DNA of 64,000 bases, taken from positions 239,159-303,158 of the forward strand of contig CP179887.1 in the NCBI GenBank assembly GCA_047456295.1. Direction: 5' to 3'. This stretch comes from Candidatus Nealsonbacteria bacterium. Its GTDB lineage: Bacteria; Patescibacteriota; Minisyncoccia; Minisyncoccales; JANBVM01. Positions 16,152 to 17,657 of this stretch are shown here, one piece after another. The stretch's first letter is position 1; each line of letters opens with the position of its first letter. The position numbers were made by a program, and so were the translations under genes. The notes under the pieces were generated by a model that ran no database searches, had not been told where the DNA came from, and was given only the letters and a program-made list of their open reading frames with translations.

Positions 16152-17657
<1,506 letters not shown>

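Follow-up and report, generated by a model that had tools for sequence, protein, structure and literature searches.

Organization of the 16S rRNA gene and its 3' tail

The 64-kb stretch of DNA analyzed here (the window) contains one rrs copy, which is a full-length 16S rRNA gene lying ~4 kb apart from the 23S gene (Table 1). The interval between the two encodes a YbaK-like editing protein, a methyltransferase, an M20 peptidase, and an MscS-like channel, together with tRNA-Ile and tRNA-Ala, and the rRNA genes (8941-17657) are unlinked. Alignment of the 23S gene also revealed insertions, such as one of 91 nt near model position 225. With its consensus promoter and the processing helix predicted to form between its leader and trailer, the 16S gene looks functional. 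The 3' end of the gene reads ...GGAUCACCACAUUUU, with two bases changed such that CCUCC is replaced by CCACA. When this end (GGAUCACCACAUUU) is aligned to the Rfam consensus GGAUcACCUCCUUu, the two substitutions correspond to U1537A and C1539A in E. coli numbering, as counted by hand. A previous sequence-only reading of this DNA had reported CCACA in place of CCUCC, and the Rfam alignment confirmed both the replacement and the exactness of the transcription.

Table 1. Coordinates of features in the window, numbered from its first nucleotide
Feature	Position	Strand	Basis or remark
5S gene	8941-9051		Rfam
23S gene	9129-12140		Rfam
YbaK-like tRNA-editing gene, directly 3' of 16S	15445..15972	(-)	Pfam PF04073; homologues 168 aa
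Pre-16S leader-trailer helix, trailer arm	16047..16067	(-)	~22-bp duplex with 17669-17688, -37.4 kcal/mol
U-rich continuation UUUUAUUUU after CCACA	16146..16154	(-)	Mature 3' end somewhere within
Anti-SD-equivalent positions (E. coli 1535-1539), CCACA and not CCUCC	16155..16159	(-)	Rfam alignment
GGAUCA	16160..16165	(-)	Invariant in 11/11 listed clade tails (9 non-redundant)
Helix 45, intact: 10-bp stem CACGGGUAGC-GGAA-GCUGUCCGUG, GGAA loop, sequence CACGGGTAGCGGAAGCTGTCCGTG	16165..16188	(-)	Rfam consensus alignment
16S rRNA gene, full length	16152..17657	(-)	Rfam RF00177 (SSU_rRNA_bacteria), model 1-1533, 1434.6 bits
Pre-16S leader-trailer helix, leader arm	17669..17688	(-)	Pairs with trailer arm 16047-16067
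Predicted sigma-70-type promoter of 16S: TTGACA, 17-nt spacer, TAAAAT	17725..17753	(-)	Sequence reading
RF1-type release-factor gene by rpmE	20772-21524	(+)	~240-250 aa, without N-terminal domain 1
prfB (RF2)	50741..51806	(-)	Pfam PCRF and RF-1
Programmed +1 frameshift site CUU UGA C in prfB	51737-51743	(-)	Reading frames
SD-like GAGGA in prfB	51748-51752	(-)	-6.5 kcal/mol
Island genes	52885-56886, 57030-60053, 60172-61456, 61526-62464		
Extended canonical SD AGGAGGTG	60060..60067	(-)	6 nt upstream of the ATG of the 1007-aa SUKH gene (start 60053); -14.1 kcal/mol with canonical tail
Extended canonical SD AAGGAGAGTGAT	62470..62481	(-)	5 nt upstream of the ATG of a 312-aa gene (start 62464); -15.1 kcal/mol with canonical tail
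tRNA-Thr and tRNA-Gly adjoining the island	62684-62837		

The variant tail is rare among bacteria and shared by relatives

The sequence-only reading had proposed that read support for the 16S 3' end be checked and that the ends of related genomes be compared, and both comparisons bore out its description of the tail. Logan contigs of runs DRR463592 and DRR463593, which were assembled separately, have a 16S end and trailer identical to those of the window in both of these independent read-level assemblies, although the contigs break inside helix 45 and so span only the 3' flank. The relatives carry the same or more degenerate tails. Searching one genome per species for this helix-45 pattern yielded, among the matches listed (at least 120 loci from many phyla, unrelated to the window), 120/120 that continue ...GGATCACCTCCT. 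When metagenomes were searched for the pattern with a non-T base after it, three contigs matched, two of which (L122 and L123) have ~90% 16S identity to the window and the identical tail CCACATTTTATTTT. L124 (Ga0210350_1054815) is an unrelated metagenomic 16S with another non-canonical tail, GGATCACC-CCTAAGTTTGG.

We fetched the 16S ends of relatives using the YbaK-like gene adjoining the 16S 3' end as a synteny anchor. None of the ~10 related assemblies recovered at the same conserved genome position (80-91% 16S identity) has CCUCC. The gene order of the region is common to the clade (S2, EF-Ts ... 16S, tRNA_edit, methyltransferase ... MscS-like, 23S, MreC, MreD, PBP2, LysRS) and is kept in CP179889.1, a complete genome of 647 kb, as well as in several metagenome contigs. 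This synteny and the 87% 16S identity of CP179889.1 affiliate the window with named Nealsonbacteria. For the YbaK-like gene and RF2, too, the named homologues that match best come from Nealsonbacteria, and an NCBI protein labelled Candidatus Nealsonbacteria bacterium matches a 1007-aa protein of the window at 100% identity.

The tails of the clade form a graded series. The window, L122, L123/L133, and L132 (16S identity 87-91%) have GGAUCACC-ACAUUUUAUUUU, which begins GGAUCACC-ACAUUUU; L126 (CP179889.1), L127, and L129/L130 (87-90%) have GGAUCACU-ACAUUUUAAA, beginning GGAUCACU-ACAUUUU; L131 (89%) has GGAUCAUA-ACAUUUUUUUU, beginning GGAUCAUA-ACAUUUU; and L134 (80.6%) has GGAUCAUU-UAAUUCUAAA, beginning GGAUCAUU-UAAUUCU. 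Across the clade, the tail thus drifts through CACC, CACU, CAUA, and CAUU with GGAUCA fixed. Drift of the former anti-SD positions next to an invariant GGAUCA is the pattern expected after selection on the anti-SD has been lost. Directly after the degenerating CC/CU/UA dinucleotide, ACAUUUU is kept in 8/9 non-redundant lineages (those with 87-91% 16S identity to the window), the exception being the most distant member, and the trailer beyond ACAUUUU varies.

Shine-Dalgarno motifs do not exceed chance level upstream of genes

The mRNA side was analyzed in the 64-kb window and in the 4-20 kb flanks of relatives (eight non-redundant related loci). ORFs of ≥80 aa were called naively from the first start codon as a greedy non-overlapping set, and an SD core 4-mer was defined as AGGA, GGAG, or GAGG at -18..-4. 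As the positive control, identical code was applied to 49 kb of annotated E. coli K-12 sequence (59 ORFs), which replaced high-GC non-CPR loci (20% SD) because first-start calling fails in the latter. In the 54 ORFs of the window, the SD core 4-mer occurred at 13% of starts vs 22% of the coding control, and the fraction pairing with the canonical tail at dG ≤ -4 kcal/mol was 0.28 (shuffled 0.26). The nine loci of the anti-SD-less clade (156 ORFs) gave 9% vs 20.5% of the control and a dG fraction of 0.21 (shuffled 0.21), while the corresponding E. coli values were 46% vs 5% and 0.80 (shuffled 0.59). The arrangement GGAG-N4-10-ATG showed no excess in the window (50 vs 46.5 +/- 7 expected) and ended at an ORF start in 2/50 instances there, compared with annotated starts in 30/44 instances in E. 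coli. When any candidate start within 60 codons was accepted, there was still no SD excess over out-of-frame internal controls, indicating that mis-called starts are not hiding SDs. Thus, SD motifs upstream of genes are at chance level in both the window and the clade.

The window-wide mean dG against the canonical tail was slightly stronger than shuffled (z ~ -3.3), which stems from a handful of genes, mainly two that reside on the inserted island described below. For core genes with the island excluded, the mean of -3.04 was not significantly different from the shuffled value of -2.63 +/- 0.25. The sequence-only reading had stated that GGAGG-type motifs are missing upstream of the core-gene starts that it inspected, and this stands statistically for the core genes, which show no GGAGG enrichment in the window or the related loci; it does not stand for the window as a whole, where AGGAGGTG, AAGGAGAGTGAT, and GGAGGAGAG had been overlooked. 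The last of these is an SD-like motif that precedes the glutaredoxin start at 31417 and lies inside the upstream gene. Its broader proposal that SD-independent initiation is the default was supported by every test that we ran in the window and the eight related loci.

We also examined 33 CPR loci with a canonical tail (L001, L012, L023, L044, and others), where the SD core was present at 17/203 ORFs (8%) and the dG ≤ -4 fraction was 0.39 vs 0.35 shuffled. SDs may therefore be little used across much of CPR, whatever the tail sequence. These loci, in which CCUCCU is kept, have the same T preference at -1 as the clade.

Start regions are A/U-rich and weakly structured

Upstream regions of the clade are poor in G and C. 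Positions -5 to -3 are A-rich (49-52% in the clade and 53-61% in the window), and -1 is T at 61% of starts in the clade and 55% in the window. Between -15 and +30, 40-nt windows fold with an MFE of ~ -2.5 kcal/mol vs ~ -4.2 kcal/mol elsewhere, and GC dips to 0.24 vs 0.35. A TATAAT-like -10 hexamer ending 6-8 nt before the start was found at 14/89 operon-first genes (16%) vs 1/67 inner genes. The spacing at ftsZ (44187), TTGACC-N17-TATACT-N6-ATG, is of this leaderless type, and further examples of a -10 box near the start include the genes starting at 47054 and 44820 as well as the YbaK-like gene. These promoter-like hexamers, which occur in AT-rich DNA, suggest that a minority of operon-first genes is leaderless or nearly so. 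For the YbaK-like gene, the arrangement TTGTCA-N17-TACAAT-N9-ATG leads to the second ATG at 15951-15949, which is probably the true start in place of that of the longest ORF (region 15949-15989); a TACAAT box 9 nt upstream of this ATG would yield a near-leaderless transcript. Among same-strand gene junctions, 13/42 are ≤10 nt or overlapping, and many operon-internal genes would therefore probably restart by close coupling.

The prfB frameshift site is conserved without its SD

Programmed frameshifting in E. coli prfB is stimulated by an SD located 3 nt upstream of the site, for which we computed a pairing energy of -12.6 kcal/mol. The window prfB has the CUU UGA C site together with an upstream GAGGA, and the site is also found in prfB of CP179889.1 (L137) and of the L122 relative (L138), making three clade members. 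In both of the latter, the GAGGA codons read AUGGAC (-3.9 and -3.2 kcal/mol, respectively), and a functional role of the window GAGGA was rejected on account of this lack of conservation. Conservation of the slippery-stop site but not of the SD agrees with an absent rRNA partner, without which degeneration of the SD would be the expected outcome. Frameshifting at prfB can work without SD pairing (PMC10798248), and the published cases resemble the present one in keeping CUU UGA C while the stimulatory SD degenerates; however, those clades keep the anti-SD, whereas the window clade has no rRNA partner.

The release-factor gene by rpmE was considered as a frameshifted prfB and rejected, since its PKT and GGQ motifs are of the RF1 type. 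The truncated RF1-type gene is also present in L126, L129, L131, L132, and L133, and the version in the more distant L134 is 349 aa.

An inserted island carries canonical SDs

prfB and the ftsB-lepA genes flank an inserted island of ~11 kb (~51.9-62.5 kb), whose products include a helicase, the 1007-aa SUKH/SMI1-KNR4 protein, and several proteins without a family match. GC falls to 29% within the island, which is not present at the corresponding ftsB-prfB position of CP179889.1. Homologues of the SUKH protein are patchily distributed among Thermococci (archaea), Thermotogae, Atribacteria, and other phyla. Both of the extended canonical SDs listed in Table 1 belong to genes of this island.

Alternative explanations

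The most mundane explanation would be that the true 16S end is canonical and that CCACA was mis-assembled or is chimeric. Although metagenome-assembled genomes frequently have poorly assembled rRNA ends and the Logan contigs, broken inside helix 45, cover the 3' flank only, helix 45 and the trailer form one contiguous, conserved stretch, the two run-level assemblies agree, L122, L123, L132, and L133 are contigs from other samples with the identical tail, and close variants of it occur in the complete Nealsonbacteria genome CP179889.1 and in other assemblies. Because the end is identical in independent assemblies and in contigs from other samples, an artefact is excluded for practical purposes, and we assign it almost no probability. 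It is also very improbable that the window copy is specialized or decaying while a second, canonical rrs elsewhere performs SD-dependent work. CPR genomes usually have one rrn copy. The window 16S is full length with a high score against the bacterial model, possesses both a consensus promoter and a processing helix of 22 bp, and occupies a position that is syntenic across the clade, including the complete 647-kb genome; moreover, the core genes have no SDs for such a copy to serve. What speaks for a second copy are the perfect extended SDs of the two island genes and the heterogeneous rrs tails of a few bacteria, such as Alteromonas and Hodgkinia (PMC6107228).

A different possibility is that the anti-SD is not lost but silenced by sequestration on the 30S platform, as in Bacteroidia. 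This would produce the same phenotype on the mRNA side, namely SDs at or below chance and A-rich leaders, and the SD-poor state of CPR relatives with canonical tails would be compatible with some ancestral silencing. Yet the defining feature of that system, a retained canonical anti-SD (CCUCC), is absent here, and Parcubacteria reportedly often lack bS21 (PMC9297842). We regard silencing of this kind as very unlikely. In the Bacteroidia type, rpsU (bS21) also has an unusually strong SD through which it is autoregulated; no rpsU was found among the annotated ORFs of the window, all but a few of which were scanned against Pfam. The tail could also have switched specificity, forming a new SD:anti-SD pair in which CCACAUUUU is complemented by UGUGG or AAAAUGUGG-like motifs on the mRNAs. 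The invariance of ACAUUUU in 8/9 non-redundant lineages despite drift of the two preceding bases is in its favor, as is the over-representation of AAAA upstream of starts (69 vs 48.8 expected). Nevertheless, pairing of clade upstream regions to each genome's own tail (-2.62) was no better than that of shuffled upstream regions (-2.86 +/- 0.09), and the tail-complementary k-mers UGUGG and GUGGU were not among the enriched k-mers of these regions. A-richness peaks at -5 to -3, whereas pairing with the U-tract, which lies 3' of positions 1535-1539, would need an A-tract farther upstream than a normal SD, and published surveys describe no variant anti-SD accompanied by a correspondingly altered SD (PMC6107228). 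SDs have not been replaced by any motif that complements the new tail, there is no new SD:anti-SD pair, and a switch in specificity has very little likelihood. Pairing of the tail CAU with AUG and upstream A's (AAAAUG:CAUUUU) was likewise ruled out, because positions -1 and -2 are T-rich rather than A-rich.

Loss of the anti-SD and its probable evolution

From these results, we consider it very probable that this clade of Candidatus Nealsonbacteria (Parcubacteria, CPR) has lost the anti-SD core of its 16S rRNA and does not use SD:anti-SD pairing for start selection. We infer that starts are instead chosen by SD-independent cues of the kind usually invoked, for which PMC10783764 names a lack of secondary structure, protein S1, and leaderless mRNAs. 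One cue would be the local A/U-rich, weakly structured stretch at ~ -15 to +30 around the start; some operon-first genes, in which a -10 box precedes the ATG by 6-8 nt, may have no leader or almost none; and many operon-internal genes would restart by close coupling. Because CPR loci with canonical tails are also SD-poor, the ancestors of this clade probably made little use of SDs even before losing the anti-SD. The assembly GTPase Era binds CCUCC and so imposes a second constraint on it, which has been reported to be absent from most CPR and may be missing here too. With the constraints of SD use and Era both gone, the tail would have been free to mutate.

We think it unlikely that ACAUUUU is a newly constrained element of the 30S 3' tail, such that the tail has been repurposed and the anti-SD not merely lost. 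If so, the element could serve in the docking of a lineage-specific protein, as a weak U-tract partner of A-rich leaders, or, in a lineage possibly devoid of Era, as a determinant of how the 3' end matures.

Comparison with known systems

Loss of the anti-SD is rare overall, having been found in 128/20,648 taxa (Amin et al. 2018, PMC6107228). In Parcubacteria, just 48% of 16S genes were found to contain CCTCCT (PMC9297842, Tsurumaki et al. 2022, RNA 28:1041), the authors considering SD helices unlikely to form in the lineages concerned, and the loss overlaps with the group lacking uL1 (PMC9297842); the rplK-rplA region, where uL1 would be encoded, lies outside the window. That Parcubacteria subgroup belongs to the same superphylum and presents the same observation as the window, but tail sequences and an mRNA-side SD analysis are missing from the study, and its main text does not mention Nealsonbacteria. 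In PMC10783764, CPR genomes appear among the "SD-scarce organisms lacking CCUCC", and this 2024 list already includes Campbellbacteria, Wolfebacteria, Peribacter, and SR1. Bacteria of this kind (PMC10783764 class iv, PMC6107228, Lim et al. 2012) share with the window clade a variant tail common to relatives, no SD enrichment, and no compensatory motif, and the window itself lacks CCUCC, shares its variant with relatives, and shows neither SD enrichment nor a tail-complementary motif. Most of the cases listed are Flavobacteriia, Mycoplasma, and insect endosymbionts, with Nealsonbacteria not named in the text consulted. Our literature search found no paper linking Nealsonbacteria with SD usage.

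Bacteroidia (Jha et al. 2021, PMC7797042; McNutt et al. 2023, PMC9976891) resemble the window in that SDs are absent, genome-wide in their case and over 64 kb in ours, but they keep CCUCC hidden behind bS21, bS18, and bS6, whereas the window 16S does not have the sequence itself. Mammalian mitochondrial 12S and Nanoarchaeia 16S (PMC10582724, PMC10783764) are, as here, small-subunit rRNAs without an anti-SD. However, Nanoarchaeial mRNAs are commonly leaderless, while only ~16% of operon-first genes have leaderless-type spacing here, and unlike the mitochondrial and Nanoarchaeia case, most genes of the window clade lie inside operons with short A/U-rich junctions.

The phenomenon is already published for related CPR lineages, and the gain here is incremental. 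What we add are the graded series of tail decay, the prfB data, the start-region signature, and an SD-bearing island in an anti-SD-less host. The clade provides a free-standing bacterial lineage without SD:anti-SD pairing that is documented at both the rRNA and the mRNA level. In such genomes, SD-trained gene finders will mis-place starts and annotation pipelines requiring CCUCC will truncate the 16S gene, and expression tools for CPR should not depend on SD sequences. The clade is also natural material for asking what other constraints act on the 16S 3' tail (Era, bS21, and prfB frameshifting) and what becomes of foreign genes with strong SDs in an anti-SD-less host.

Insertions in the rRNA genes of relatives

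The 16S gene of the window has no LAGLIDADG-type insertion. Among relatives, LAGLIDADG homing-endonuclease ORFs were observed within the rRNA genes of L123 (4854-5414), L133 (9084-9644), and L129 (15222-15728). The L123/L133 insertion is ~0.9 kb and sits close to the 3' portion of the 16S gene, while that of L129 is located in the 23S gene.
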